Shown: positions 4,733-21,086, numbered from the stretch's first letter. The stretch: DNA of 24,000 bases from Dyadobacter jiangsuensis (GCF_003014695.1 NZ_PYAS01000001.1:468738-492737); one strand, 5' to 3'. The notes: generated from the letters alone by a model not told the origin. Numbers and translations: made by a program.

Positions 4733-4859
4733 ACTTTTGAAAGAATGGTTAATTGATCACTCGATTGGCTGTCGACTCCGGCGTTCTGTCGCCAAACGCA
4801 CGCCGGAACAGCTCCACGGCTTGGCCGTGGGGTTTTTATAGTCTGTCAGGGGGCTTACG

Positions 4860-5825
4860 TCATTGGTAAATGGTCAGTTTTTTGTTTACAATCTTGTATT
4901 TGATATTCAGCGAGTAGGCCACGCTGTTCATCACGTTTTCCAGCGATGCATCTGCGAATGAACCGGTACAGCGGCGAGAGGCCAGTTCCGGTGCGGTAAT
5001 CACCACTTTTACGCCATACCATCTTTCCAACACGGGCGCGATCTCCGCGAGCGGCAGGTTATCGAACGTAAGCCTGTTGCGTACCCAGCCGAAATGTCCT
5101 TGCGCATACACGCGATCCTGCGCGAGCCGGCCATTGGCGTGATCGTAAATGCCGCGTTCATTGGCGGTGAGTATGAGATGAGACGTGCCGGAGCCTTTCG
5201 GAGCGAAGCGAACTTTTCCCTCGCTTACGACGAGGGTCACGCTGCTGCCCGGGTATGATTTGAGATTAAATGCAGTACCGAGTACGGTCGTGCGGGTGGT
5301 GACTGTGTGAATGGTAAATGGCCTGGTGCTGTCTTTGGCTACTTCGAAATAGCCTTCGCCGGTAAGCCACGCGGTGCGAGCCGTGTCGCTGAACCCGACC
5401 GGGTAGGTGAGCCGGCTGCCTGCGTTGAGGTATACGACCGTGCTGTCGGGCAGTAAAAAACGTCTGCGTTCACCGGTAGCCGTTTGCAGATACCGGTATT
5501 CGGTTTTCCTGCTTATTGTGGAGGCTGCAATATCTTTTGAGGTTAGCGTTTGCCGGAAATAATTCCAGGACGCGACCAGTAAAAGGCATGCAGCGACAGC
5601 CGCGAGGAACGGGTAAAGCCATGCAAGGCGGTTGTTTTTGGGTTCATTTGCTTTTCCCAAATCAAGTTTTTGCCAGATTTCGTCCGTTGCGGCATCTTCT
5701 TCGTCCTGCTCCGCATATTGGTCGAGGTCGTCCGTCGCGGCAAGCCATTGCGTTACGGCCAGGGCTTCATCTTCGGAACAAAGCCCCTGGTGGTATTTTT
5801 GCAGTAATTCGGGTGTAATGCGCAT
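4860..5825 (-). CDS. FecR-family anti-sigma factor / transmembrane sensor
   Basis: 321 aa. Cytoplasmic N-terminus (LLQKYHQGLCSEDEALAVTQWL), a single TM helix (LAWLYPFLAAVAACLLLVASW), and a periplasmic FecR-like domain (LPDSTVVYLNAGSRLTY..GEGYFEVAKD..PFTIHT). The C-terminal region (..LTFDNLPLAEIAPVLERWYGVKV) is typical of Bacteroidota FecR proteins. Confidence 0.9.
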   Translation of the reverse strand: MRITPELLQKYHQGLCSEDEALAVTQWLAATDDLDQYAEQDEEDAATDEIWQKLDLGKANEPKNNRLAWLYPFLAAVAACLLLVASWNYFRQTLTSKDIAASTISRKTEYRYLQTATGERRRFLLPDSTVVYLNAGSRLTYPVGFSDTARTAWLTGEGYFEVAKDSTRPFTIHTVTTRTTVLGTAFNLKSYPGSSVTLVVSEGKVRFAPKGSGTSHLILTANERGIYDHANGRLAQDRVYAQGHFGWVRNRLTFDNLPLAEIAPVLERWYGVKVVITAPELASRRCTGSFADASLENVMNSVAYSLNIKYKIVNKKLTIYQ

Positions 5826-5903
5826 GGGGAACTCGACGTGTACATGAGGTTAGTTCCATAACTCCCCATGCATCCCTAAACGACTTACCTGAAAAACCAC
5901 GAA

Positions 5904-6425
5904 TTATTCGAGCCCGCTCCGAAGCAATGCGATGCTCTTGCCGATATGGTACTCCACCGTTTTGACCGAAACCTGCATTTCCTCGGCGATTTCCCGGTTG
6001 CCCATTCCCTGCTCACGGCTGAGTTGGAAGATGCGCCGGGTAGCTGCCGGCAGCTGTGCCAGGAGGCTGGAAACTGTGCCGGAAAGTTGCTCGAATGAGA
6101 CCATTTCCTCCGTGGTATTTTCCTGGGCGGTAGCCTGTCTTCCGATCGCTTCGAGGTGTCGGTCGTGAATTGCTTTGTCGCGGAAGTGCCTGTTAACCTG
6201 CAATTTGGCGGCGCGGATCAGGTAATGCTCCGGCGAGGTCCTGATTTCCAAGTCGCCGCGGCGTTCCCAAAGCGTCTGAAAGATTCCCTGCACAATCTCC
6301 TTCGACTCCTCCTCATCGCGCAGGTAGGAGCAGCAAAGGCGGAAAAGTTTTTTGGCATACGTCGTGTACAGCATCTCGAACGATTGCTCGTCAATGGTAG
6401 TCAGCTGCGACGGACGGTTTTGCAT
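5904..6425 (-). CDS. ECF (sigma-70 family, group IV) RNA polymerase sigma factor
   Basis: 173 aa. Region 2 is recognisable (FRLCCSYLRDEEESKEIVQGIFQTLWERR). Region 4 has a helix-turn-helix (RRIFQLSREQGMGNREIAEEMQVSVKTVEYHIGKSIALLR). It lies upstream of FecR. Confidence 0.95.
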   Translation of the reverse strand: MQNRPSQLTTIDEQSFEMLYTTYAKKLFRLCCSYLRDEEESKEIVQGIFQTLWERRGDLEIRTSPEHYLIRAAKLQVNRHFRDKAIHDRHLEAIGRQATAQENTTEEMVSFEQLSGTVSSLLAQLPAATRRIFQLSREQGMGNREIAEEMQVSVKTVEYHIGKSIALLRSGLE

Positions 6426-8728: not shown

Positions 8729-10480
8729 CTAATCCGCAATGCTGGACGAAGCCGCAAGTTTAATATCGGCATGCTGCCAGGACTTCTCAAATGCCGATTT
8801 GACTGCCTGTGCTTCGTTGTTTTTTTGTTTTTCCAAAGCATTGTACAGGCCGATCAATGCCCAGCCGTTTTTCCTCCACGTCAGGAGATCCTGCCGGTAG
8901 ACACGTTCCGCTTCGGCATTTTTTCCGGCTTTGAGCAGTACCGCACCGAGGTGGTGCCTGACGGAGAAAAACCAGTCGGGCGGCTCGTTGTAGTTGAGGT
9001 TATCTTCGAGGGCGATGGCCTCATTGAGCAGGGCGGCAGATTTGTCGAGCTGGTTTTGCTGCGCGGCGATACCGGCCGACAATACCTTGGAGGCGATTTG
9101 CACGAGATCCACGGAGGTGTTGATGTTCCATACCGTAATGTTTTTCAGCGTTGTGTCAGCGGCCAATGCGGCAAGCGACTTCATTTCTTCCTGCGCGTGG
9201 GGCAGGTCATGTTTGCCCAGAAACGCCATTCCCCTCGCGTAATGCCAGATTGCCTGCGGATAAATCAGATCGTTGCCCGGCTTGGGCTCGGCCAGGAGGG
9301 TATCCCACATCGAGAATTTTGTCGCTACATAATACGGGATAGTGTAATAATGCTGCAGCGTGCCCCATCCGGGCTGGCGCATCACTTCCTTCGCGGTGTA
9401 ATGCTGCACTTTCCGGGCAGCGAGCCAGGCCAGGTCGGAGTTGCCTTCAAGGGTGGCGGTAGCTACCAGGAAGTGGTAGTTGTGCGGGAAATAGGCGAGC
9501 GGGTAGGCACCTTGCGCGTGACAAGTGGTGATGTAGTTGCTGTCTGCCTCGACCGAACTTACATTGGAAAGCGACCCCAAATGATAATCGCCGGTATTGA
9601 TGTAAATATGCGACGGCATGTGGAGCAGGTGGCCTGCGCCCGGAACCAGCGAGTCGAGTAATGCGGCCGACGCCATCGCTTTTTCAGGCATGGCGGAAGC
9701 CTCCACGGCGTGTATGTACAGGTGATGTGCGCCCGGATGCCGCGGGTTCTTTTTCAGCAGGCTTTCCAGTACAGCGAGCAGCGTCGGCGTCCAGGATTTG
9801 GCGGCTTTCGTCTTTTTGTCGTACAAATCCCAAGGATGCAGGTCCATTTGCGCTTCGGCGTACAGCGCCCCGATGTCGGGATCGGTAGGGAATTGGTCGT
9901 ACACTTTTTTCATCGCGGCCGCGAACGCGATATCCAGCGGCGACCTGTCGGCAGGAGGGGTTTCGGTATACCGCGTGGTCAGTGCGCCGATCAGCGCCTT
10001 TTCTTTGGGGGTGCATTTGGCCGCCAGTTTTTGTCCTTTTTGAGTAGCCGCCCAGGCGCGCTGGAAATTGTCCGGCTCCATGCCCGCATTGTAATTAGGG
10101 CCCAGCACATAGGCATAGCCCCAATAGGCCATGGCGCAGGTCGAATCGAGGCGGGTAGCCTGGTAAAACGACCGGGCGGCCTCAGCGTGGTTGAAACCGT
10201 AGGAAAGCATCAGTCCCTGGTTAAAATAGGCCTGTGCCTCCGGACTGGAAGTGGTAATCTTGAAATCGATGCCCTTCAATCCGTCGAGCATGGGTGCCTT
10301 TTTGCCCGAACTATACCATTCGGCGTCGGTGGTTTTGGGATTGTAGCAAACCGTAATCCGCCCCGTAGTGTCGGAGGCCGGTTTTTCCGATTGCTCCTTT
10401 TTTTTGAAGCAGGACGAAAGGAGTACAATCAATGCGAGGTAACAATGGCCGTGCTTCATGAGCGTAGAAGTTTGAGTCAC
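8729..10480 (-). CDS. TPR-like repeat lipoprotein, function unknown
   Basis: 583-aa ORF. The likely start is the ATG at 10459 (MKHGHCYLALIVLLSSC, lipobox). The protein is all-helical and repeat-like (AQAYFNQGLMLSYGFNHAEAARSFYQA..; C-terminal ..LLKAGKNAEAERVYRQDLL..). It carries conserved-looking His clusters (HPGAHHLYIHAVE, GAGHLLHMPSHIY). Confidence 0.8.
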   Translation of the reverse strand: MTQTSTLMKHGHCYLALIVLLSSCFKKKEQSEKPASDTTGRITVCYNPKTTDAEWYSSGKKAPMLDGLKGIDFKITTSSPEAQAYFNQGLMLSYGFNHAEAARSFYQATRLDSTCAMAYWGYAYVLGPNYNAGMEPDNFQRAWAATQKGQKLAAKCTPKEKALIGALTTRYTETPPADRSPLDIAFAAAMKKVYDQFPTDPDIGALYAEAQMDLHPWDLYDKKTKAAKSWTPTLLAVLESLLKKNPRHPGAHHLYIHAVEASAMPEKAMASAALLDSLVPGAGHLLHMPSHIYINTGDYHLGSLSNVSSVEADSNYITTCHAQGAYPLAYFPHNYHFLVATATLEGNSDLAWLAARKVQHYTAKEVMRQPGWGTLQHYYTIPYYVATKFSMWDTLLAEPKPGNDLIYPQAIWHYARGMAFLGKHDLPHAQEEMKSLAALAADTTLKNITVWNINTSVDLVQIASKVLSAGIAAQQNQLDKSAALLNEAIALEDNLNYNEPPDWFFSVRHHLGAVLLKAGKNAEAERVYRQDLLTWRKNGWALIGLYNALEKQKNNEAQAVKSAFEKSWQHADIKLAASSSIAD

Positions 10481-10643: not shown

Positions 10644-11081
10644 CTATTTTTTCCTCCGATACTTGCTAATTCCTCCCAGGCACGACTTAATCGTCATTTC
10701 ATCCCCTGTTTGCGTAATGATCAGCTTCGGGCAAATGATGCAATCGACGAGCCTGCAATTCTCGTCGAAGGGGATGTCTTTCTGCGGTTTTACTTTAAAC
10801 ACCTTTCCGTTCACCTCGTATTCGGACGTGGCGCAGCAAGCCCCCAACCCGTCGTATAGCATTACGCCGTCGAAGCGTATCGAAAAGGCCCTTTGCGGTT
10901 CGTTGGTCATGTTTTTAATCACGGTAGAATCGCCTAACGTGTATCGGGTTTCCACCAAAAGCCAATCGCCGACGATGCCTGCGATCTCGGGCACAGGCTG
11001 TGGTTCGGGTTCTGCATTTTTATCGCGTTTGCAATAGGTAAATGCCAAAGAGAGAAGCAGGAGAAGTACAAGTCGTTTCAT
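10644..11081 (-). CDS. Small Cys-rich lipoprotein, function unknown
   Basis: 145 aa. MKRLVLLLLLSLAFTYC has a signal peptide and lipobox. A GDW.. motif follows the linker, and the mature part contains seven further Cys residues. Confidence 0.8.
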   Translation of the reverse strand: MKRLVLLLLLSLAFTYCKRDKNAEPEPQPVPEIAGIVGDWLLVETRYTLGDSTVIKNMTNEPQRAFSIRFDGVMLYDGLGACCATSEYEVNGKVFKVKPQKDIPFDENCRLVDCIICPKLIITQTGDEMTIKSCLGGISKYRRKK

Positions 11082-11165: not shown

Positions 11166-12971
11166 TTACGCTTCATTTTCGAAGCGTCGAATCCGATGGC
11201 AACGCATCAATTTCAAATGCCGCTGATGCTCCCGCACCATCTCGACACCATCCCTGAGCGTCATTTGAGGTGCCCCTTTTTTCGCATTTGCCATGCTGAT
11301 TTCAAAAAGTATTTTCCAATGCCGGTAAATCTCTTTCCAGGCGAAGAACAGCGAATGCTGCGGATCGTAGATGTGTGTCGGTTCGCTGGCCGCGCCGTTG
11401 AGTTCGATGATTGAGAAATGCTGTCCGGCTTCGAGTGCTTCCCAGCTTTTGAAGCGGATGTCGAGCCGCCCGAAATGGAAGCCGGGTATGCGCGCGCATA
11501 TCCGGTCGATCGCCTGTGTGAGCGCGGGGGTGATGCGACGGCTGAGGTCTATGAATTTCGCGCCGCGGCTATGGTTGCCGTAAGGGACGAGGCCGATTTT
11601 TTCACCCCTTGCAGGAACTGACCTTAACCGCTCGCCCAGGGACTCATGCAGGGCGGGGAGTTGCAAAATCGCCCGGTCGTCCTGCATCATCAGCGTCAGG
11701 ATGTCCGATGCGCCGTCTCCGGTGACGCTCAACAGCTCCTTCCCGACGATGCCCGAAATGTGTCCGCTTTGTTCGCCCGGCATTCGGTGATAGAATATGC
11801 CCGCTTCGTTCGGGTAGTCGATGTAGGGCTGCATGAGGAAATCGACCCGGCTGTGCAGGCGATAATCTTCGAGATCGGTTTCATTTTCCAGGAGCTTTAC
11901 CTGCACGCCGCGTTCGCCGATGTCGGGTTTAGCGATCAAGGGGAATGTGAACGAGGAGCGCTGTAACAGCATTTGTATTTTCTCCCGCGGAATGCCTGCC
12001 TCACACACCAAAGTTTCAGGGTACGAGCCCTTTGGCATGAGCGCGTAAATCCTGCTCTTACGTTCTTCGGCGAAGCCCGCATACCGCATCGAGGGGTTGG
12101 CCGCGCCGAAAAAGCAGATTGCACGCGCCTTTATGCTTAACCAAAGCCAGGCTGGTAGCGTGGGCGCATACACGCATTCCAACGGCCAGTATTCCCAATT
12201 ACGGAGGCGGATCAGAAAGCGCCTGGCCTTCCAGCGGAGGCTGTCAAATGCCATTTGCTCACCCGGCGGCGCCTCTGCCGGCCGGGAAACAAAAGTGGTT
12301 CCGGCGCGGAGGTCATGGTAATGCATGGCGGGCTCGGGGCCGGTCAGATCGACGGAAGTAACGCTCACGGTAGCTATTGCGTCGCGATGTTCATGACAGC
12401 TGTGGCTGGGATCGAACATAATGCCGTTTTGGGTGTGAAAATCCAGGATGCTTTCCCTGGTGACGGCGCTTTTGCCGTACCATTGTTGCAGCCTTTGCGC
12501 CCGCATTTGCCGTGCATCATCATTATACAGCGTCGCCGATGCCCATATATGCGGCTGATGGGCATCAAGTTCGTTCCGGTGTTTGCGGCTGCCGTCCCAG
12601 GTACAGCGCATGAGCCTGCCGTCTGTGAACAGGATCAGCGTAAAGGGTTCGATTCCTTCCAAAACCGTCGTTTCAAAACAGTCTGCCGGAGAAGACGCCT
12701 CCACGATTTCCAGCATTACCAGGCCGCGGCTTCTGTTGTACGAGGGCTTGCGTACATGATTTTTGAAGCCCCCGTTGAGCAGCACGGCCGCGTCGCGCCG
12801 GCCTTTCAGTGCAATCCAGGTGCCGCCAGCCTGGGCATCTTTCGGGTAGGTGAGCGAGGCGCCTGCGTGGCGGGTTGCGGGAGGCTCGGCAGGCGCACGA
12901 TCGGTGCGTTCATCCCGGTTGGATGTCAGGAACGCGCCTTTACTGGTCGGAATGTAGGTTACGGTGCACAT
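11166..12971 (-). CDS. Fusion protein: N-terminal NRDE/TANGO2-family domain plus C-terminal ATP-grasp ligase domain
   Basis: 601 aa. The N-terminus MCTVTYIPTSKGAFLTSNRDERTDR has Cys2 and the NRDE signature. A Pro/Ala linker lies near aa 230-240. ATP-grasp motifs are present: FPLIAKPDIGERGVQV (Lys348), FLMQPYI (aa 379-385), and GRLDIRF...FSIIELNGAASEP (Asp504, Glu523, Asn525). The start codon overlaps the DinB gene stop by 13 nt. Confidence 0.85.
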   Translation of the reverse strand: MCTVTYIPTSKGAFLTSNRDERTDRAPAEPPATRHAGASLTYPKDAQAGGTWIALKGRRDAAVLLNGGFKNHVRKPSYNRSRGLVMLEIVEASSPADCFETTVLEGIEPFTLILFTDGRLMRCTWDGSRKHRNELDAHQPHIWASATLYNDDARQMRAQRLQQWYGKSAVTRESILDFHTQNGIMFDPSHSCHEHRDAIATVSVTSVDLTGPEPAMHYHDLRAGTTFVSRPAEAPPGEQMAFDSLRWKARRFLIRLRNWEYWPLECVYAPTLPAWLWLSIKARAICFFGAANPSMRYAGFAEERKSRIYALMPKGSYPETLVCEAGIPREKIQMLLQRSSFTFPLIAKPDIGERGVQVKLLENETDLEDYRLHSRVDFLMQPYIDYPNEAGIFYHRMPGEQSGHISGIVGKELLSVTGDGASDILTLMMQDDRAILQLPALHESLGERLRSVPARGEKIGLVPYGNHSRGAKFIDLSRRITPALTQAIDRICARIPGFHFGRLDIRFKSWEALEAGQHFSIIELNGAASEPTHIYDPQHSLFFAWKEIYRHWKILFEISMANAKKGAPQMTLRDGVEMVREHQRHLKLMRCHRIRRFENEA

Positions 12972-13465
12972 TGCGCCTGGCGGTATCGGATGGTGGAACT
13001 GGCTACTCCGAAATTCTCCGGCAGTTGCACGGCGGCGAGCGCCCGGATGCCGATTTTCATCAAAGCCATATGATGCACCGCATGTTCAAGGTTGTAAACC
13101 AGCTCCCGCTCATAGTTGGTGGTCACCTGGAAGCCGCTATGGCTGGCCTCGGTGGCGGTTGTTAACAGCAGCATTTTGTTCTCCTTTTCCAGCGCAGCTG
13201 CAATCCCGTGCAGGGTAGTTAGCGCCAGTTCCCGCTGGTGTTCAATGGCTTTATCGCGTTGCCTGGCGTCGTAGTTCACACGGCCTGTCCGGTAACCGCG
13301 GTCGAGCTCGATGAAGAACTCGATCACGTGGCGTACGTGCCCGCCCAGCGACGCGCCCGAGAGTACGGGCAAGCTGCGCCCATACTGCTCGTCGGACAAT
13401 GCATCGAGCATTGTGCCGATCTGCGCCAATGTGGCTTTAATTGATTTTGTTAGTTGCCTGTTCAT
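12959..13465 (-). CDS. DinB-family (four-helix bundle, His-triad) protein
   Basis: Internal ATG at 13465 gives 168 aa starting MNRQLTKSIKATLAQIGTMLDALSDEQY. His motifs GGHVRHVIEFF and LEHAVHHMALM fit the DinB/DinB_2 metal site. The longer track ORF (to 13615) would overlap DoxX. Confidence 0.85.
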   Translation of the reverse strand: MNRQLTKSIKATLAQIGTMLDALSDEQYGRSLPVLSGASLGGHVRHVIEFFIELDRGYRTGRVNYDARQRDKAIEHQRELALTTLHGIAAALEKENKMLLLTTATEASHSGFQVTTNYERELVYNLEHAVHHMALMKIGIRALAAVQLPENFGVASSTIRYRQAQCAP

Positions 13466-13526: not shown

Positions 13527-13949
13527 TTAATCGCGGGATTTGACGCCCGAAATGCTGCTGCGATGCCAGTACACGAGCACCAGGCAGGTAATGAGTACAA
13601 CCAACGCCATAACAAAAAGCTTGCCCGAGTCGTTTAGCACCACGATCCCCAGGCGTGTGAGGTGCATAAAGACGGCGCCGGTCATCACGCCGATGCCGAT
13701 CAGCGCGCCGTAGGCGGTAGTGCGTGGGATCAGAATCAGAACGGAGGCGATCAGCTCCAATACGCCTACGAATATACGTCCCCAGGGCTCCATACCGACG
13801 GTCGAAAAGATGTAAACGGATTCGGGTGCGGCGGAAAATTTGAAATAGAGGGTTTGCAGCATAATCACTGCCGCTGTCAGCCGCAGCAACCACGACCACC
13901 CCGGATGTGTTTGCGGTTTCATCACTCCTTGTCTTTGATTAGTGGCCAT
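13527..13949 (-). CDS. DoxX-family integral membrane protein
   Basis: About 131-140 aa with four hydrophobic segments (e.g. WLLRLTAAVIMLQTL.., IFVGVLELIASVLILIP, YGALIGIGVMTGAVFMH, LFVMALVVLITCLVLVYW), typical of DoxX. The likely start is ATG 13922, which shares one nt with the upstream gene's stop (TGATG). The alternative start at 13949 would overlap that gene by 28 nt. Confidence 0.85.
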   Translation of the reverse strand: MATNQRQGVMKPQTHPGWSWLLRLTAAVIMLQTLYFKFSAAPESVYIFSTVGMEPWGRIFVGVLELIASVLILIPRTTAYGALIGIGVMTGAVFMHLTRLGIVVLNDSGKLFVMALVVLITCLVLVYWHRSSISGVKSRD

Positions 13950-14362
13950 TGTATGTCTGCTTTTTCGATGAATTCTTCCCGTTTTTTCGACCAGTTGTTT
14001 CTGACTTTCATATTATAATTGAAATACAACTTGTTGTCTGTGATCGTCCAGGTTTCTGCTTCGGTAGGCGCTTTGTGGCCCTCGGAAGTCCCGTAGGCGC
14101 AGTAGCCGCCGTACTGCGGCACATACATCTCGGGAGCGGCCTTGAATGCGTCGAGGTTGGCGCGGGTGGCGAACAGCCAATCGGCGTCCTTGTAATGGTA
14201 GGAAAGGCTATCGGCACCTTCAACGGGTCCGGCGTCTTTGAAAAATGCCACGACGTCGTAACCCTTGATTGCCTTTCCTTTCGGCGCGAAAATTTCGGAT
14301 TTCTGTGCAAATGTTACCTGGGCCGCGAGCATGAATGCGGCAACGAATAGGACTTTGTTCAT
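13922..14362 (-). CDS. YHS-domain family exported protein (paralog 1)
   Basis: 146 aa with signal peptide MNKVLFVAAFMLAAQVTFAQ. Family motifs are IKGYDVVAFF, Y..ADWLFATRANLDAFKAAPEMYVPQYGGYCAYG and KLYFNYN. Confidence 0.85.
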   Translation of the reverse strand: MNKVLFVAAFMLAAQVTFAQKSEIFAPKGKAIKGYDVVAFFKDAGPVEGADSLSYHYKDADWLFATRANLDAFKAAPEMYVPQYGGYCAYGTSEGHKAPTEAETWTITDNKLYFNYNMKVRNNWSKKREEFIEKADIQWPLIKDKE

Positions 14363-14377
14363 TGGTAATTCGAGTTT

Positions 14378-14845
14378 TTAAGGTACAAACTTCATCCAGT
14401 TACGGTCGGCCTGCGTTTTCAGGCGTGCCTCATCCTGGTTCCAGCTTTTGAGGGTGTTGTTGAAGAACTTATTATAAAACAGGTAGAGCTTTGCGTCCAC
14501 AATTTTGAAAGTCTCCGGGTCGATCTCCACCTTTTCGCCTTTCTTGCCCATGGCATAAGCGCACCAGCCACCGAATTGCGGCTCGTATCGGACGGGGTTG
14601 CGCAGGAACTCGTCCTTATTTTGCTTGGAAGCAAAGCGGTAGGTAACCCCGTTGTGGTTGGCCGAAAGGTCCTTTTGGCCAACCACGGCCTTGTTCATGG
14701 TGAAATAGGCCACCGGGTCGTAACCCTGTATCGCGAGGCCGGATGATTCGAGGTTATACTGTTTTTTCCGAGTCTCTGCATGCTGCGCGAAGACGGTGCC
14801 CGTCACCAGCAGCAGAAGCAACAGGATATTGATCTGGCTTTTCAT
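14378..14845 (-). CDS. YHS-domain family exported protein (paralog 2)
   Basis: 155 aa with signal peptide MKSQINILLLLLLVTGTVFAQ. Motifs are IQGYDPVAYF, GVTYRFASKQNKDEFLRNPVRYEPQFGGWCAYA and KLYLFYN. It lies 15 nt upstream of paralog 1. Confidence 0.85.
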   Translation of the reverse strand: MKSQINILLLLLLVTGTVFAQHAETRKKQYNLESSGLAIQGYDPVAYFTMNKAVVGQKDLSANHNGVTYRFASKQNKDEFLRNPVRYEPQFGGWCAYAMGKKGEKVEIDPETFKIVDAKLYLFYNKFFNNTLKSWNQDEARLKTQADRNWMKFVP

Positions 14846-14847
14846 GG

Positions 14848-16173
14848 TTATTGCAATGTCACTTTAATGATATTGTTGATCGCCGGAAGCGTCGTGAACT
14901 TGTTCGGGTTGGGGACGGGCGCGATGGCTTTGCTCTCATTCAATGGTGTGCCTGCCAGATTGAATTGCGTAATGCCCGCGCCGGGGAACTGGTCGATGGC
15001 CGTGCCGTTATCATATAATCCGACAGCCCCCGAAATATCGCCGCTGGCATTACCGTCGATATCGTTGCCACTTGTAGCAAAGAACCAGTCGTTCGAGAAG
15101 CCGTACATGGTCGCAATGGCGATGCGGTCGCCGGATGTAAGCGTGAGCGGTTGCGAAACTTTGCCGCCTGTATTCCCGCCGATTTTCGGCAATAGCACCG
15201 TGCTCATCGGTTCTTTGAGGACGTATACATTTTTAATGCCGGCTTTCATTTTCAATGCGGCAGCCAGCACGTCGGCATTTCCTTTTTGTGCAAGTTCTTT
15301 CAGGCCTTCGCCGCGGTCATTCTCGCCGGATTTGAAAAACGGATTTTCATTACCGTTGTAAACCACCACCAATACCGGTGAAAGTGGCGTGAAAATGCCG
15401 GTTTGCGAGGCCAGCCAGGTACTCATCGGGGCATTGTCGCCGGCTTCGGCGATGGGGGTCAGTGCATCGGTGGTGGCTTTGCCTTCGGAATAAACGGGTT
15501 CGGGAAGCAGCAGGTTACCGCCTGCCACGTAAGAAATGGCCCATACGCCGGGGCTGAAAGGCGTCTCGTTGGCGGTGCCCCCCGACTGGTTTTTAATCGT
15601 AATGGTAAACATCGAGCTGCCGTCATAGGCCAGGGAGACGTTCATGAGCTGGGAGGCAGGCAGGAATGCATGGCCATAGTCGTCCATTCCCGTTACTTCC
15701 TTGATATTGCGCGGCGTGGCTTCGGCTGTACCCGGGTGCGTTACGCCCATGCCGGGCGCCTGGTTCACGCGGGAGCCATTGTCCCAGAGTTTGATCTGGG
15801 TGGAAACGTCGCCCGTAATAGGGGCACCATTGTCGTCGTACAGCCTGATCCCCGGATTGGCAGGGGCAAAGAAAAGGTCATTGCTCCATCCGTACATGGT
15901 GGCGAAGGTAAGGCGCTGGTTTTTGGCGGCTGAAAACGAGAAGGATACCGATTGGCCCGGCAATATCACGGGCGGCGTGCCGGTTCCTTTGAATGTGCCC
16001 GATTGCACAAGCGGTTTGGCGTCGAGGACGTTTTCAATGGTAAGGGTTTTGGCGGTCGGCTGCGGGTCGTGGTCGTCGGTGCAGGCTCCGAAAATGAGGG
16101 CCGTCAGCGACAGCCCGAGTAGTGATCTGATCATGTCTGTTTCCGTTTTGAATCGTTGGATGATGCAAAGCAA
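14848..16173 (-). CDS. Lipoprotein with two spondin_N-like repeats
   Basis: The likely start is ATG 16134 (MIRSLLGLSLTALIFGAC, lipobox). There is an internal duplication (TFATMYGWSNDLFFAP..IRLYDDNG..NQAPGMG and IAIATMYGFSNDWFFAT..VGLYDNGTAIDQFPGAG). FSPGVWAISY and PFFKSGE..GEGLKELAQKGNADVLAAAL resemble bacterial spondin-domain proteins; that assignment is from memory. Its stop is 2 nt from the next gene's start. Confidence 0.75.
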   Translation of the reverse strand: MLCIIQRFKTETDMIRSLLGLSLTALIFGACTDDHDPQPTAKTLTIENVLDAKPLVQSGTFKGTGTPPVILPGQSVSFSFSAAKNQRLTFATMYGWSNDLFFAPANPGIRLYDDNGAPITGDVSTQIKLWDNGSRVNQAPGMGVTHPGTAEATPRNIKEVTGMDDYGHAFLPASQLMNVSLAYDGSSMFTITIKNQSGGTANETPFSPGVWAISYVAGGNLLLPEPVYSEGKATTDALTPIAEAGDNAPMSTWLASQTGIFTPLSPVLVVVYNGNENPFFKSGENDRGEGLKELAQKGNADVLAAALKMKAGIKNVYVLKEPMSTVLLPKIGGNTGGKVSQPLTLTSGDRIAIATMYGFSNDWFFATSGNDIDGNASGDISGAVGLYDNGTAIDQFPGAGITQFNLAGTPLNESKAIAPVPNPNKFTTLPAINNIIKVTLQ

Positions 16174-16272: not shown

Positions 16273-16977
16273 ATGGACACCAAAAACGTGTTGATCGTCG
16301 AGGACGATACCAACATTACCGAATTGCTTTCGATCCACCTTTCGGACCTGGGATGCAAGGTGGTCTCAGAGAAAAACGGGCAGAACGGCCTCACGCGGGC
16401 GCAAGACGAAAATTTTGACCTGATCATACTTGATGTGATGCTGCCTGGCCTGAATGGAATGGAGATATGCCGGAAAATCAGGCAGGCCGACCGGCAGACG
16501 CCCATCATGATGCTTACCGCGCGTTCGGAGGAAATAGACAAGGTAATGGGCCTCGAAACCGGTGCCGACGATTACCTTACCAAGCCTTTCAGCGTGCGCG
16601 AGTTTATTGCACGGGTGCGGGTGATATTCAGAAGAAGTGAGGAGAAGGCACGTTACGCGGCGCCGGTGCCGCAGCTGATCCGTATTGCAGGGCTGGAAAT
16701 CGATATGGACAAGCGCAAGGTAATGCTGCACGGCGAACGGCTCGATTTATCGCCGCGTGAATTTGAACTGATCGTGCTGTTGGCGTCGAATCCGGGGAAA
16801 AGTTACAGCCGCAAGCAGCTGCTGAGTCTCGTGTGGGGCTACGATTTCGAGGGATACGAGCATACGGTCAATACGCATATCAATCGGCTGAGAGGAAAAA
16901 TCGAGGCCGATGCTTCCAATCCTGTATTTGTTTTAACCACCTGGGGCATCGGCTACCGGTTTAACGAAGATCTGTGA
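16273..16977 (+). CDS. OmpR/PhoB-family response regulator (receiver plus winged-helix DNA-binding domain)
   Basis: 234 aa. Receiver motifs are VLIVEDD, DLIILDVMLPGLNG, IMMLTA and KPF. The C-terminal winged helix reads LSPREFELIVLLASNPGKSYSRKQLL..VWG..Y....TVNTHINRLRGKIE....VLTTWGIGYRF. Confidence 0.95.
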   Translation: MDTKNVLIVEDDTNITELLSIHLSDLGCKVVSEKNGQNGLTRAQDENFDLIILDVMLPGLNGMEICRKIRQADRQTPIMMLTARSEEIDKVMGLETGADDYLTKPFSVREFIARVRVIFRRSEEKARYAAPVPQLIRIAGLEIDMDKRKVMLHGERLDLSPREFELIVLLASNPGKSYSRKQLLSLVWGYDFEGYEHTVNTHINRLRGKIEADASNPVFVLTTWGIGYRFNEDL

Positions 16978-16978
16978 A

Positions 16979-18445
16979 ATGTCAGTAAGAACCATCGGGG
17001 GTAACCTTCTCTTCTGGAAAATAAGCGGTGTTTTTACGAGCCTGCTGATCATCCTCGGCATCATATTCGTCATGATCGCCTCCCGGTTTTCGAAGTCGTA
17101 TTATATGACAGCCCACCAACAGCTGTACGGTGGAATCGCGCAGCACCTGGCCACATTTACCCAGCCCATTAAAAATGGCAAGCCCGATACGACGGTTACG
17201 CACGACATTATCCATTCCACCATGGTCGCGAATCCGAGCGTAGAAGTATACCTCCTCGACACGCTCGGGAACATTACCGACTACGTGGTGCCCCAGGCCT
17301 CCGTACAGATGAAGCGGGTCGATATGGCGATCGTGCGCGAATGGCTTGCCTCGGATGCCGGTAAACCCATGGGCGATAATCCGAAGCATCCCGGCGAAGC
17401 CAGTATTTTCTCGGTGGCACCGGTGCTGGAAAACGGCGTGAAGGTCGGGTATGTGTACGCGGTGCTCGCGAGCGAGACCCAGAAACAGATTCTCGCCTCG
17501 CTGACCGACGACCTGAATTTCAGGCTGGCTGCCTACATTTTTTTCGCTGCATTGCTTGGGGCGTTTGTCGTGGGAATTGTCACATTCTTTCTCATCACCG
17601 ATAGCATATGCAGCATTGCCGGCGTCGTGAAAAGGTTCAAGGATGGCGATCACGCTGCACGCGTGCACGGGTATGCGACGGGGAACCTGGGCGTACTAAC
17701 CTCCACATTCAACGACATGGCCGATGTGATCGTCGATAATATCGAAAAGATCACCGCCACCGACCGGCTCCGGCAGGAACTGATCGCCAATGTTTCGCAC
17801 GATTTACGGACACCGCTTTCGATTATGCAGGGGTACGTCGAGACGATGATGATCAAAAAGGATACGCTCTCGGAGCCGGAGAAGGAGCGGTACCTGGCTA
17901 TTGTGCAGGAAGGGACCCGCAAGCTTTCGGGGCTGGTGGACCAGTTGTTTCAATACTCGAAACTGGAAGCGAATGTGGTGTCGGTACAAAAAGAGGTATT
18001 TCCCCTGGATGAGCTGGTTTCGGACATCCTCAGCTCGTACCAACTGAAAGCCGACGAGCGGGGCATCCGGCTCTCGATGGAAACCGTTCCCGCCCTGCCG
18101 CCCGTTTTTGCCGATATCGCGCTGACGGAACGGGTGTTCCAGAACCTGCTCGACAATGCTTTCAAGTTTACCCCGGAAGGCGGGCAGATTACCGTACGCC
18201 TCGAAGACTCCGGTAAAGGGATCAAAATCCGGGTTGCCGACACAGGAGTAGGTATTGCGAAGGCTTACCAGGAGCAGATTTTCGAACGCTACAAGCAGGC
18301 GGAAATGTACCCGTCGGGGCAGAAGGGCGCAGGCCTCGGCTTGGCGATCGTTCGGAAAATACTGGAATTACATCAAACCACGATCGAGGTAGTCAGCGAG
18401 AGTGGGAAAGGTGCTGCTTTTGAATTTGTCATGCACCGGGCATAA
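16979..18445 (+). CDS. Sensor histidine kinase (2 TM helices, periplasmic domain, HAMP, HisKA, HATPase_c)
   Basis: 488 aa. TM1 is VFTSLLIILGIIFVMIA, followed by a periplasmic segment of about 150 aa and TM2 LAAYIFFAALLGAFVVGIVTFFLI. Other motifs are a HAMP domain, H-box ANVSHDLRTPL, N-box LLDNAFKFTPEGG, G1 VADTGVGI and G2 GAGLGLAIV. The ATG is 1 nt after the regulator's stop. Confidence 0.95.
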   Translation: MSVRTIGGNLLFWKISGVFTSLLIILGIIFVMIASRFSKSYYMTAHQQLYGGIAQHLATFTQPIKNGKPDTTVTHDIIHSTMVANPSVEVYLLDTLGNITDYVVPQASVQMKRVDMAIVREWLASDAGKPMGDNPKHPGEASIFSVAPVLENGVKVGYVYAVLASETQKQILASLTDDLNFRLAAYIFFAALLGAFVVGIVTFFLITDSICSIAGVVKRFKDGDHAARVHGYATGNLGVLTSTFNDMADVIVDNIEKITATDRLRQELIANVSHDLRTPLSIMQGYVETMMIKKDTLSEPEKERYLAIVQEGTRKLSGLVDQLFQYSKLEANVVSVQKEVFPLDELVSDILSSYQLKADERGIRLSMETVPALPPVFADIALTERVFQNLLDNAFKFTPEGGQITVRLEDSGKGIKIRVADTGVGIAKAYQEQIFERYKQAEMYPSGQKGAGLGLAIVRKILELHQTTIEVVSESGKGAAFEFVMHRA

Positions 18446-18593: not shown

Positions 18594-20441
18594 GTGAAAC
18601 AAGCGACCATTAAGAAATTTCGCTCATTCCTGAAATTCAAAAGGGGGCTGACTGCGTACAGTTTAAGAAAGTTCAAACTCTATGAAGTCATTGTCTTTTG
18701 GCTTAAAAGCATCCTTACCCGGTCGCAGTTCCTGATCCTATCGGGGATATTGGTGGGATGCAGTGCTGGATTGGCCGGTGTGGTCTTAAAATCGCTGGTC
18801 CATGCCATTCATCACCTGATTACCCACAAGGTCCATTTCGAAACCCAGATTTTCTTTTATGCGGTGTTCCCCTTCCTGGGGATCGTACTCACTTCCCTTG
18901 TCGTTGTCCTGTTCTTCGGGGGCAATGACCGGAAAGGCATACCTGCCATTTTGCACGAGATCGCGCAGAATTCCAGTATCGTGGCTCCGGTAAAAATGTA
19001 CTCCCAGGTGGTGCAAAGTGCTATAACCGTGGGGCTTGGGGGCTCGGCCGGTCTGGAAAGTCCTATTGCGGTAACCGGTTCGGCGATCGGATCCAATTTC
19101 GCACAAACCTATAAACTCGATTACCGCGAGCGTACTTTGTTGCTTGCCGCGGGCGCCACGGCGGGGATCGCTTCGGCATTCAACGCTCCGATTGCCGGGA
19201 TGATGTTCGCTGTCGAAATACTGCTTACCGGTGTGGTGTTCACCGATTTCATACCGCTCGTACTGGCTGCCGTCTGCGGCAATGTGCTTTCCAGAATGCT
19301 GCTCAATGAGGAAACCCTTTTCCATTTCAGCAGCCGGCACCCGTTTAACTACCATAATCTGCCCTTTTACCTTGTGTTGGGCGCATTGTGTGGACTTTAT
19401 GCCCGGTATTTTGTGGTAATCGGGCATCAGGTCGAGCGATTTTTTGGCAACCTGAAAGGCGGAAGGTTAAGAAAAGCCATGATCGGGGGCGGGATGCTGT
19501 CGGTACTTTGCGTGTTGTACCCACCGTTGTTCGGGGAGGGTTACGAAACCGTCAAGGCACTGGTCAACGGGCAGGTGGGGGAGTTGATGGAAAACAGTTT
19601 TTTCGGTATCGTCGGCGGGCAGCGGTGGGCGGTTGTGGTGTTTCTGACGATTGTTTGCCTCCTGAAAGCATTTGCCAGTTCCATCACCATTTTCAGCGGC
19701 GGTAATGGCGGTAACTTTGCGCCGTCGCTTTTTGCAGGCGGTACCCTCGGATTTGTATTTGCATTATTCTGCAACTTTATCGGCATTTCCGATGTACCCG
19801 TAGCCAACCTGGTGCTGGTGGGGATGGCGGGCGTCATGAGCGGCGTGCTTTATGCCCCGCTGACGGCCATATTTCTTATCGCCGAATCCAGCTCGGGATA
19901 CGACCTGTTTATTCCCCTCATGGTGGTAGGCGTGATGTCGTTCCTGATCTCCAAATGGTTTTCTACCATTTCTCCCGATTTGCAAAGGCTGGCCGATGAG
20001 GGCAAAATATTCACCCGGGAACACGACCGGAACCTGCTTTCGCAGTTGAATACCCTGGATTTCATCGACAGGGACGTGCCCGTCGTGGACATCGACCTGC
20101 CATTTGAAAATTTCGTTGATGCATTGCATGAAAACAGCCATAACCACCTGGCTGTGGTGGACCGTAATGGTATTTTTCGTGGGATGATCCTCGTGAAAGA
20201 CCTCTATCCCTACCTTTTTGCAACGGGAGAAGTTGCTGGCTTATCGGTAGCGTCGTTCGTACGCCAGCCGCCGGCGACCGTCGGGGAAAACGAGCCCGTC
20301 GCCCGGATTGTGACCCGATTTGACCAAACCGGTTCCTGGCATTTGCCGGTCGTTGATCCTCAGGGCCGTTACATCGGTTTTATCGCAAAATCGAGGTTGC
20401 TCGATCGTTACCGCAGCTTGCTTCAAGCGCATTCGGGCTGA
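18594..20441 (+). CDS. ClC-family chloride channel / Cl-:H+ antiporter homolog with C-terminal CBS pair
   Basis: 615 aa. ClC motifs are KGIPAI (GSGIP position), GGSAGLESP (GREGP position, Glu retained), AFNAPIAGMMFAVE, GGNFAPSLF and SSGYDLFIPL. The C-terminus is CBS-like (VVDRNGIFRGMILVKDL.. / LPVVDPQGRYIGFIAKSRLL). The GTG start at 18594 is the only in-frame start before the first TM region. Confidence 0.9.
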   Translation: MKQATIKKFRSFLKFKRGLTAYSLRKFKLYEVIVFWLKSILTRSQFLILSGILVGCSAGLAGVVLKSLVHAIHHLITHKVHFETQIFFYAVFPFLGIVLTSLVVVLFFGGNDRKGIPAILHEIAQNSSIVAPVKMYSQVVQSAITVGLGGSAGLESPIAVTGSAIGSNFAQTYKLDYRERTLLLAAGATAGIASAFNAPIAGMMFAVEILLTGVVFTDFIPLVLAAVCGNVLSRMLLNEETLFHFSSRHPFNYHNLPFYLVLGALCGLYARYFVVIGHQVERFFGNLKGGRLRKAMIGGGMLSVLCVLYPPLFGEGYETVKALVNGQVGELMENSFFGIVGGQRWAVVVFLTIVCLLKAFASSITIFSGGNGGNFAPSLFAGGTLGFVFALFCNFIGISDVPVANLVLVGMAGVMSGVLYAPLTAIFLIAESSSGYDLFIPLMVVGVMSFLISKWFSTISPDLQRLADEGKIFTREHDRNLLSQLNTLDFIDRDVPVVDIDLPFENFVDALHENSHNHLAVVDRNGIFRGMILVKDLYPYLFATGEVAGLSVASFVRQPPATVGENEPVARIVTRFDQTGSWHLPVVDPQGRYIGFIAKSRLLDRYRSLLQAHSG

Positions 20442-20510
20442 TTTTGCCTTTGTTTAAAAGAATACTTTTTTAACTTGCCAGCCCTGTATTTCTCACCAGA
20501 ACCACGTGCT

Positions 20511-21086
20511 ATGGCATTCAACAGATACCTTTTTGCTACCCTCGTCGCCCTGAGCCTGCTGAGCGGCTGCCAGGACAAGGAAAGAGCCCACGAGCTCGAC
20601 GTACGCGAGCAGGGCATACTTGCGCGCGAGAAAGAATTTGCGATTAAAGAAGCTGACTACCAGTCGCTTATGCGAATGCGCGACAGCCTGCTGACCCGGA
20701 AGGACACGGCGGTTGTAATCCAGCGCTGGCCCGAGGAGATCGCCGGGATCTGGGCGGGTAAGTCGGTATGCCGGGAGTCCAATTGCAGCGAATATGTGAT
20801 AGGGGATCTGCGTTCCAACACCTGGGAATTTGTAAGTGACTCCACCGGGCTTTATACCCGTGTGATCAATAACAACAAGGTAGTCAGGGTGTATTCGGCA
20901 AAGTACGATAGTACCAGCATCCAGCTCCATTATACCAGCGACTCGTCGGCCGCGAAGAATATGGAAATGAATGTGGAATTGACCCGTGATAACAAGAATC
21001 TGATCAAGGGAATGCAGACGACAGCCATCGACAAATCCTGCACCGCGAAATTTTCCATTGAGCTAAACCGCCTAACCAACCGCTAG
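20511..21086 (+). CDS. Hypothetical lipoprotein
   Basis: Internal ATG at 20511 gives MAFNRYLFATLVALSLLSGC (lipobox). A charged helical segment follows, then a beta-rich domain. Its TAG stop is immediately followed by the ATG of the antiporter gene (TAGATG). Confidence 0.75.
   Translation: MAFNRYLFATLVALSLLSGCQDKERAHELDVREQGILAREKEFAIKEADYQSLMRMRDSLLTRKDTAVVIQRWPEEIAGIWAGKSVCRESNCSEYVIGDLRSNTWEFVSDSTGLYTRVINNNKVVRVYSAKYDSTSIQLHYTSDSSAAKNMEMNVELTRDNKNLIKGMQTTAIDKSCTAKFSIELNRLTNR

Follow-up and report, generated by a model that had tools for sequence, protein, structure and literature searches.

A TANGO2/NRDE domain fused to an uncharacterised ATP-grasp ligase in Dyadobacter jiangsuensis, and its association with a conserved DinB gene

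Why does a single gene of Dyadobacter jiangsuensis encode both an NRDE/TANGO2-family domain and an ATP-grasp ligase, and what might this union say of the function of the NRDE domain? The gene lies in a 24,000-nucleotide stretch of the genome (GCF_003014695.1, NZ_PYAS01000001.1:468738-492737), referred to here in its full length as the window, where an initial annotation had described a 601-residue open reading frame (ORF) as a Rosetta-stone fusion of these two families. TANGO2 deficiency is a severe human metabolic disease, and the function of TANGO2 is contested, the candidates being heme trafficking, acyl-CoA binding and the activity of a hydrolase with an N-terminal cysteine nucleophile (Cys-Ntn). 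The fusion proved to be genuine, and a DinB-superfamily gene was found to be its near-constant companion.

Positions 11166-12971, minus strand: the full 601-residue NRDE-ATP-grasp fusion ORF, with its stop codon at 11166-11168.

The ORF is real and lies on the minus strand, which the initial annotation had left unstated. Its product begins MCTVTYIPTSKGAFLTSNRDERTDR and is 100% identical to a D. jiangsuensis protein at NCBI labelled just "NRDE family protein", while some automated names in UniRef point to the second half ("D-alanine--D-alanine ligase", "Tubulin-tyrosine ligase family protein"). With this identity and more than 120 clusters of full-length homologues, the observation is confirmed far beyond chance. 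The top 120 clusters are all 555-624 residues long, nearly all cover 98% of the query, with identities as low as 49%, and the fused homologues include proteins of Dyadobacter, Larkinella, Chitinophaga, Flavitalea, Pedobacter, Puia and Sediminibacterium. An uninterrupted ORF of about 590-620 residues was present in independent assemblies, including those of Mucilaginibacter and complete chromosomes.

A scan of one genome per species found a relative in at least 575 genomes, and the best 80 loci, all from Bacteroidota and possibly a biased sample, were taken with the window for a count of architectures by mechanical ORF calling. The domains were fused in 23 of these 81 sequences (22 loci and the window), and in 47 they were encoded by separate, adjacent genes, an NRDE gene of about 242 codons followed by an ATP-grasp gene of about 350, so that the unfused pairs for which the initial annotation had proposed a survey do exist. 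Five sequences carried the ATP-grasp gene only, and a few were truncated or disrupted. The gap between split genes ranged from -53 to +117 nucleotides (nt), many having a 4-nt overlap or an in-frame spacer of 3-18 nt. At one junction (locus L023) the order is TAA, 9 nt and ATG, in frame throughout, and a single stop-codon substitution would therefore interconvert the split and fused states.

In a rough, neighbour-joining tree of the ligase domain, the split forms were basal (Saprospiria, Cyclobacteriaceae, Flavobacterium), most fused forms fell into one clade, within which four of the five ligase-only forms were nested. Two ligase-only genes, from Parachryseolinea and Dawidia (L050, 5965-5977, and L051, from 5989), begin MRTV(T/A) and retain the same 13-nt overlap with an upstream DinB gene that is described below for the window; their Cys2 has become Arg by a T>C change that is silent in the reading frame of DinB. 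This start is a relic of the MCTVT start after in-frame deletion of the NRDE body. No NRDE remnant was found within 6 kb on either side of the ATP-grasp-only loci. As the NRDE and ATP-grasp genes form either a fusion or a neighbouring pair throughout Bacteroidota, and are neighbours in Verrucomicrobiota, their activities belong to one pathway.

Positions 12240-12275, minus strand: variable, Pro/Ala-rich inter-domain linker (residues 233-244, including Met240), recognised by gapped, unconserved alignment columns and low model confidence.

The linker, which had been placed near residues 230-240, is the counterpart of the stop/start junction of the split-gene loci. An AlphaFold2 model built from 96 homologues had a predicted local distance difference test score (pLDDT) of 91.8 and a predicted template-modelling score (pTM) of 0.72, and its only low-confidence stretches were internal residues 231-240 or thereabouts (SRPAEAPPGE, mean pLDDT 59) and the C-terminal tail from about residue 591 to 601. 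It had also been suggested that Met240 marks the ancestral start of a stand-alone ligase. The position agrees with this, as stand-alone ligase genes begin about 15-25 residues before an invariant WEYWP motif, but the residue itself is unconserved among fused orthologues, and Met240 was rejected as a conserved internal start.

Positions 12276-12971, minus strand: N-terminal TANGO2/NRDE Cys-Ntn domain (residues 1-232), assigned by Pfam PF05742, Foldseek and the secondary structure of the model.
Positions 12966-12968, minus strand: codon TGC of Cys2, the putative N-terminal nucleophile, invariant.
Positions 12909-12920, minus strand: N18-R19-D20-E21, the NRDE signature (R19, D20 and E21 invariant, N18 in at least 90%).

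The whole protein gave no match to the Protein Data Bank (PDB) by phmmer, and profiles of each half were needed instead. The N-terminal half matched Pfam TANGO2 (PF05742) at 36.2 bits in the whole protein (residues 15-130) and 39 bits by itself, against a cut-off of 22.6, although the match spans the first half of the model only. All 21 related N-domains tested matched the same family (best E-value, E = 8e-18). Cys2, which would be exposed once Met1 is removed, was invariant in 22 of 22 sequences of one alignment (A1) and in 21 of 21 split NRDE genes (A3), and the further invariants of the domain were M1, T3 and V4, R19-D20-E21, R25, N66-G67 (part of an invariant 'LLNG' Asn-Gly motif) and S81-R82-G83. 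The Cys2 and NRDE signatures named in the initial annotation were thus borne out. Cys2, N18-R19-D20-E21, N66-G67, R25 and R82 make up the candidate catalytic set.

The predicted secondary structure of the N-domain follows the alpha-beta-beta-alpha order of the Ntn fold. Among PDB structures, Foldseek matched it to human TANGO2 (9bwa, E = 1.5e-8, template-modelling score TMt 0.57; 8sv7, TMt 0.59), to the bacterial NRDE protein CV2077 (3gvz, TMt 0.65), to an isopenicillin-N acyltransferase (2x1d, E = 1e-8), and also to bile-salt hydrolases (BSH) and acid ceramidase. The Pfam match, the conserved residues and the modelled fold together show that the N-half is a TANGO2/NRDE family member with the Cys-Ntn amidohydrolase/acyltransferase fold. 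It has the Met-Cys start, NRDE motif and Ntn fold in common with the known members of the family (human 8sv7 and 9bwa, CV2077 3gvz, and HtpA). In a profile alignment N18-E21 corresponds to N25-R26-D27-E28 of human TANGO2, and R25 and R82 correspond to Arg32 and Arg88, the residues that in the human crystal structure, reported in 2026, hold a sulfate about 10 A from Cys2 (PMC13044924). A Cys-dependent hydrolase or transferase activity is unestablished even for the human protein (PMC13044924). The Dyadobacter domain differs from human TANGO2 in sharing only about 15% identity with it, in its length of about 230 residues, and in its covalent or operonic tie to an ATP-grasp and a DinB protein. No such association was described for TANGO2 or HtpA in the TANGO2 literature searched.

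Positions 11169-12239, minus strand: C-terminal ATP-grasp ligase domain with an N-terminal helical module (residues 245-601), assigned by profile and fold.
Positions 11928-11930, minus strand: codon of K348, the ATP-binding Lys of the 'KPDxGxxG' loop, invariant and corresponding to 'vvKP.iG' of CphA2 and GshF.
Positions 11397-11405, minus strand: E523-L-N525, the Mg/ATP-binding 'E-x-N' motif (D504 upstream), corresponding to 'iiEiN' of CphA2.
Positions 12093-12197, minus strand: invariant aromatic segment 'WEYWP...W.WLS.KARS.FFF..ANP' (residues 259-293), delimited by conservation and interfacial score.

The ATP-grasp motifs of the C-terminal half that had been named earlier are real: K348 (IAKPDIGERG), Q381 (QPYI), D504, and E523 and N525 (ELNGAASEP) were invariant in 96 full-length homologues, and among distant stand-alone members K348, D504, E523 and N525 remained invariant, with Q381 in at least 90%. 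Searches with family models, which the initial annotation had proposed, were clear for TANGO2 but sub-threshold for the second half. On the fusion protein, Pfam and NCBIfam ATP-grasp models stayed below their cut-offs (RimK 14 bits against 21; NCBIfam 13-18 bits), so that the ATP-grasp assignment required proof by profile and by fold; a distant family member (P0200) did pass RimK (23.7 bits against 21). The NCBIfam cyanophycin synthetase model (TIGR02068) matched residues 418-527 only, at E = 5e-4 and 18.1 bits against a cut-off of 850, and the Mur-ligase domain is absent, so membership of that family was rejected.

A profile of the C-domain of the window, naturally separate genes and distant stand-alone relatives (A4) matched PDB entries for CphA2 (7ta5, E = 7.3e-9), GshF (3ln6, 1.4e-6), CphA1 (7lg5, 5.2e-6) and Ddl (3r23, 4.7e-4), as well as the ATP-grasp entry 8fxh (1.2e-8), and Foldseek likewise matched CphA1 (7wae, E = 2.8e-10), CphA2 (7ta5, 1.4e-9), the GshF ATP-grasp domain (3ln6, 2.8e-9) and Ddl (3lwb, 3e-7). 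The ATP-binding Lys loop, the E-x-N Mg site and a 'GDG.ST' lid insert are shared with the CphA1/CphA2 G-domain and with GshF, enzymes that add an amino acid to a peptide carboxylate. Judged by profile and modelled fold, the C-half is a true ATP-grasp of the cyanophycin-synthetase/GshF branch with an intact ATP/Mg site, and its predicted activity is ATP-dependent carboxylate-amine ligation. Unlike the CphA and GshF enzymes, the fusion is without a Mur-ligase-like M domain, a CphA N domain or a gamma-glutamylcysteine-ligase domain. When the C-domain was searched against 1.84 billion representatives, 2,768 clusters matched at E <= 1e-3, 1,145 of them at E <= 1e-30 (clusters being 50%-identity representatives). 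They are mostly stand-alone proteins of about 350 residues, and the family has no Pfam or NCBIfam model of its own.

Where other ATP-grasp enzymes have a Rossmann-like domain ahead of the core, this family has the aromatic helical module beginning with WEYWP, in which W259, E260, W262, P263, W275, F288 and N292 are invariant and residues 259-293 form the top Wimley-White interfacial segment of the protein. In other fusions of the family the same segment comes directly after LysE or VTT membrane domains, and it is a candidate docking surface for a membrane or translocator. These other fusions comprise LysE with ATP-grasp, VTT/DedA with ATP-grasp, ATP-grasp with MORN repeats, and an alpha/beta-hydrolase (ABH), with or without VTT, joined to ATP-grasp; one protein of 1,121 residues has the four domains TANGO2, ABH, VTT and ATP-grasp. 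No transmembrane helix was found in the D. jiangsuensis fusion, including residues 259-290 (maximum Kyte-Doolittle value 1.19), and the ORF is predicted to be a bifunctional cytoplasmic enzyme in which both domains have complete candidate catalytic sets.

Positions 12959-13465, minus strand: DinB-superfamily gene (168 residues from an internal ATG; mechanical ORF to 13615), assigned by Pfam, conservation and context.
Positions 12959-12971, minus strand: 13-nt overlap of the DinB stop and the NRDE start (ATGTGCACCGTAA), read directly.

The overlap with a DinB gene that had been noted at the start of the fusion is real and 13 nt long. In 67 loci the gene directly upstream, in the same orientation, was DinB-like and about 166 codons long, and in 61 of these its stop overlapped the start of the next gene by exactly 13 nt, which implies translational coupling. 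The DinB protein of the window scored 20.7 bits against Pfam DinB, just under the cut-off of 23; DinB_2 was matched by 12 of 17 orthologues (best 4.6e-10), and a DinB profile (A5) matched the DinB-like protein 3dka at E = 0.008. H43, R45, H46, Y65, R68, R70, R120, E121, H128, H131 and H132 were invariant in the 17 orthologues, which came from three architectures. The DinB proteins form one orthologous subfamily across all architectures, with candidate metal-binding His residues on the four-helix bundle, and the DinB gene is a third near-constant member of the module, not an incidental neighbour.

The overlap is dual-coding: the C-terminal Cys codon (TGT) of DinB is dictated by the ATG-TG of Met1-Cys2, and the DinB stop TAA sits within Val4-Thr5 of the NRDE frame. 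The DinB C-terminal Cys was present in 63 of the 67. Since the overlap constrains both genes, this conservation may be a consequence of the NRDE start, or the NRDE start a consequence of it.

The module recurs outside Bacteroidota. The forms of the ligase fused to a hydrolase and VTT come from Verrucomicrobiota, and a Puniceicoccaceae genome has the order DinB, TANGO2, then ABH-VTT-ATP-grasp. A LysE-fused variant lies in the order DoxX, DinB-like protein, TANGO2, then LysE-ATP-grasp, and the four-domain protein is preceded by DinB_2. As the Verrucomicrobiota contexts repeat the order DinB, TANGO2, ATP-grasp, these three make up a module that is conserved across at least two phyla, in which the translocator and the extra hydrolase vary. 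An extra ATP-grasp paralogue was seen in locus L032 (3210-4253) and a duplicated DinB-like gene in locus L012.

Recurrent partners in Bacteroidota were identified by all-against-all clustering of the ORFs neighbouring the 80 loci and the window. Those upstream in the window are as follows.

Positions 13527-13949, minus strand: DoxX-family membrane protein (Pfam DoxX_2 and DoxX above cut-off), upstream on the same strand in 53 loci.
Positions 13922-14362 and 14378-14845, minus strand: two tandem, secreted paralogues of the YHS domain-containing (seleno)protein family (NCBIfam NF041384, 144 and 141 bits, cut-off 70).
Positions 14848-16173, minus strand: spondin-domain protein (NCBIfam NF038123, 212 bits), the first gene of the same-strand cluster.

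The YHS family was upstream in 52 loci, often in two copies; its name implies Sec/Cys variants, and a periplasmic redox role is therefore suggested for these paralogues, each of which has a GG(W/Y)CAY motif in the window. Spondin-domain genes occurred in only six loci, all of the fused type and the window among them. A LysE-type exporter lay immediately downstream in 26 loci. DM13 (23 loci) and YceI (18) were other upstream partners, a Crp-type regulator (16) and thioredoxin (13) varied in position, and DUF1223 was also part of the operon. No usable promoter or terminator signal was found to delimit the operon, the sigma-70 consensus used in the scan being inappropriate for Bacteroidota.

Divergent from the spondin gene, an OmpR-type response regulator and a histidine kinase (16273-18445, plus strand) might control the operon. 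The genes downstream of the fusion encode a 145-residue lipoprotein without a family match (10644-11081, minus strand) and a 583-residue TPR protein (8729-10480, minus strand), neither a conserved neighbour in other loci. Further away, a TonB-dependent receptor of 872 residues (CarboxypepD_reg), a FecR-like anti-sigma factor and an ECF sigma factor (2114-6425, minus strand) make up a typical trans-envelope signalling trio of Bacteroidota, apparently unrelated to the fusion, and a 615-residue ClC chloride channel with CBS domains and a 709-residue protein of the Na+/H+ exchanger family (18594-23216, plus strand) have no evident link to it.

What the module does must be read from these parts. 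Both halves of the fusion are probably active enzymes of one DinB-linked pathway. The initial annotation had proposed amide or thioester hydrolysis or transfer by the NRDE domain on the substrate or product of the ligase, which is plausible. Were the ligase and the hydrolase to act on one and the same amide bond, the result would be futile cycling, and for this reason an order of ligation, modification and cleavage is favoured; that the module handles an amino-acid (possibly thiol) conjugate in this order, in a manner linked to export, is given an even chance. The ATP-grasp domain would attach an amino acid to a carboxylate at the expense of ATP, through an acyl-phosphate intermediate as in its CphA and GshF relatives. 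The DinB metalloprotein would then process the conjugate, and the NRDE domain would hydrolyse or transfer the amide-linked group, releasing the product or recycling a carrier. The product may be handed to a membrane translocator (LysE or VTT/DedA), which in many lineages is fused or adjacent to the ligase. The redox operon (YHS, DoxX, DM13, YceI, thioredoxin, DUF1223) fits a thiol-related product without being proof of one, and the DinB proteins characterised so far all carry out thiol transfer or C-S chemistry; even so, the thiol-conjugate version is less likely than not.

Known thiol pathways offer partial analogies. The ergothioneine pathway employs the ligase EgtA, the DinB-domain protein EgtB and EgtC, a Cys-Ntn amidohydrolase that removes a transient amino-acid carrier. 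The same three enzyme types (carboxylate-amine ligase, DinB-fold metalloenzyme and N-terminal-Cys Ntn amidohydrolase) would be combined here, by analogy, but EgtA is GCL-type and not ATP-grasp, EgtB has an extra FGE-sulfatase domain, and EgtC is of the class-II glutamine amidotransferase (GATase) type of Ntn enzyme. No equivalents of EgtD or EgtE were seen in the loci. In mycothiol and bacillithiol detoxification, a DinB S-transferase acts first, followed by a conjugate amidase, export and carrier recycling (PMC10950700). The MST/Mca and BstA/Bca routes resemble the module in that the DinB gene is accompanied by one for an amide hydrolase and, in many cases, one for an exporter, and in that the carrier is re-ligated in an ATP-dependent step (PMC10950700). 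They differ in that Mca and Bca are LmbE-type zinc amidases and MshC and BshC are not ATP-grasp enzymes, and the thiol link here is one of analogy.

Several points weigh against the proposed pathway. Five lineages retain the ligase without NRDE, and so in these NRDE is either dispensable for the ligase or supplied from elsewhere in the genome. The DinB protein of the window itself falls just below the Pfam cut-off, DinB-fold proteins with non-thiol functions exist, and the window is without a LysE gene. The YHS and DoxX genes are absent from the Verrucomicrobiota locus, and the redox context may therefore be a lineage-specific co-location. The substrate cannot be deduced from sequence, the chemistry of every member is inferred, and the sample of 80 loci, chosen by best score from at least 575, may be biased.

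The best-surviving alternative, although unlikely, is that the module modifies or turns over membrane-lipid head groups in an MprF-like manner. At the inner leaflet, the ATP-grasp domain would join an amino acid to the head group of a lipid or N-acyl-amino acid, or act through such a head group, VTT/DedA or another membrane partner would translocate the product, and NRDE or the alpha/beta-hydrolase would trim or recycle it as an N-acyl-amide hydrolase or acyltransferase. Fusions of the ligase to VTT/DedA and to the alpha/beta-hydrolase would suit this, as would the invariant aromatic interfacial segment ahead of the ATP-grasp core, but the fusion has no transmembrane helix, and LysE-family partners are exporters of small solutes and not lipid flippases. 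Enzymes whose substrates are N-acyl amides or acyl-CoA (isopenicillin-N acyltransferase, BSH, acid ceramidase) are the closest to the N-domain in structure, human TANGO2 has been reported to bind acyl-CoA (PMC11867700), and fatty-acid derivatives have been suggested as its substrates (PMC13044924); the nearest ATP-grasp relatives, however, ligate soluble peptides, and DinB would have no obvious role. YceI, a lipid/isoprenoid-binding protein, occurs in 18 loci, and an OlsF-like acyltransferase and a TMEM164 protein stand beside the four-domain variant, yet this lipid-enzyme neighbour was found in one locus only and on the opposite strand.

In the locus in question (L081, 5551-8209), the four-domain gene is flanked by genes for a TMEM164-family protein and for a bifunctional acyltransferase of 608 residues, whose domains (PF19576/PF01553/PF13444) make it OlsF-like. 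This is the sole direct lipid-metabolism neighbour seen.

It is improbable that the fusion works like a class-II amidotransferase, the Cys-Ntn domain hydrolysing an amide donor such as glutamine and delivering ammonia or an amine to the acyl-phosphate of the ATP-grasp domain. Asparagine synthetase B (Ntn with a synthetase) and carbamoyl-phosphate synthetase (GATase with ATP-grasp) would be the models. The layout of the former, in which a Cys-Ntn domain at the N-terminus precedes an ATP-dependent synthetase, is the same, and a Cys-Ntn domain at the extreme N-terminus with the synthetase C-terminal is the order required by Ntn amidotransferases (PurF, GlmS, AsnB); the 'LLNG' motif resembles the class-II oxyanion motif, and the pTM of 0.72 points to an arrangement of the two domains that is reasonably well defined. 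Unlike in asparagine synthetase B, the N-domain here is not detectably of the GATase_2, GATase_6 or GATase_7 families and the synthetase is an ATP-grasp, not a PP-loop ATPase. Membership of the class-II GATase families was rejected, as none of the 21 N-domains matched any of them (GATase_2, 4, 6 and 7), even at E <= 10, while all 21 matched TANGO2, and no GATase fold was among the top 50 Foldseek matches of the fusion. The halves are moreover separate in most lineages, the ligase persists without NRDE in five, the closest ATP-grasp relatives use amino-acid nucleophiles and not ammonia, and the DinB partner would be left unexplained. The fusion protein is neither a cyanophycin synthetase, nor a GshF, nor a class-II amidotransferase.

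It is very improbable that NRDE is a non-enzymatic carrier of heme (or acyl-CoA) that serves the redox proteins of the operon, the fusion reflecting co-expression only. A bacterial TANGO2 homologue, HtpA of Shewanella, has been reported as a heme-trafficking protein (PMC10470608), and the Bacteroidota operon does encode periplasmic proteins of a redox or electron-transfer type. However, the heme role is disputed (PMC12782551), crystallography found just non-specific heme contacts (PMC13044924), and cytochrome or heme-maturation genes were not seen in the loci. That Cys2, R19-D20-E21, N66-G67, R25 and R82 are strictly invariant points to catalysis, and NRDE stays paired with the ligase and DinB where YHS and DoxX are absent.

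That a lost stop, a frameshift or a mis-assembly joined two genes in one genome is effectively refuted: a single error could mimic the fusion, given the in-frame stop and 3-18 nt between the genes of many relatives, but the ORF of about 590-620 residues recurs at 98% coverage in more than 120 clusters, many genera and independent assemblies, and the fused forms make up a coherent clade.

A search of the full-text literature found no paper linking NRDE/TANGO2 with ATP-grasp, although a prior mention in the survey of Iyer et al. 2009 is possible, and a search on the combination of DinB, DoxX and YHS gave nothing relevant. The Lipocone paper mentions ATP-grasp in an unrelated operon only, and the HtpA paper (PMC10470608) holds no relevant information on fusions or gene neighbourhoods. 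The novelty is that of an uncharacterised ATP-grasp family in an uncharacterised three-gene module, not of a categorically new system. This family is now defined, at about 2,800 clusters (50% identity), and is repeatedly wired to membrane translocators, while a DinB subfamily gains a defined genomic context.

For the TANGO2 family, a gene pair that is fused in some genomes and adjacent in many more, with relatives in at least 575 species genomes, is strong guilt-by-association for NRDE proteins as enzymes acting on amide-linked amino-acid conjugates. It is a tentative possibility, somewhat short of probable, that DinB, NRDE and ATP-grasp, together with a LysE or VTT translocator, constitute an unrecognised three-enzyme pathway, present in at least two phyla, for the synthesis and export of a new metabolite with an amide linkage. 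Such a metabolite could be a low-molecular-weight thiol of a new kind, a thiol conjugate or an amino-acylated lipid, and the TANGO2-type domain would be a true Cys-Ntn amidohydrolase or acyltransferase acting on the ligase product. Extrapolation of function or substrate specificity to human TANGO2 is uncertain, as the identity is only about 15%. Dyadobacter, Chitinophaga, Pedobacter and Flavobacterium are tractable bacteria in which to find the substrate, and the three-enzyme pathway, if true, would provide the first pathway-level and experimentally tractable assignment for the TANGO2 family, and would favour an enzymatic role over that of a heme chaperone.

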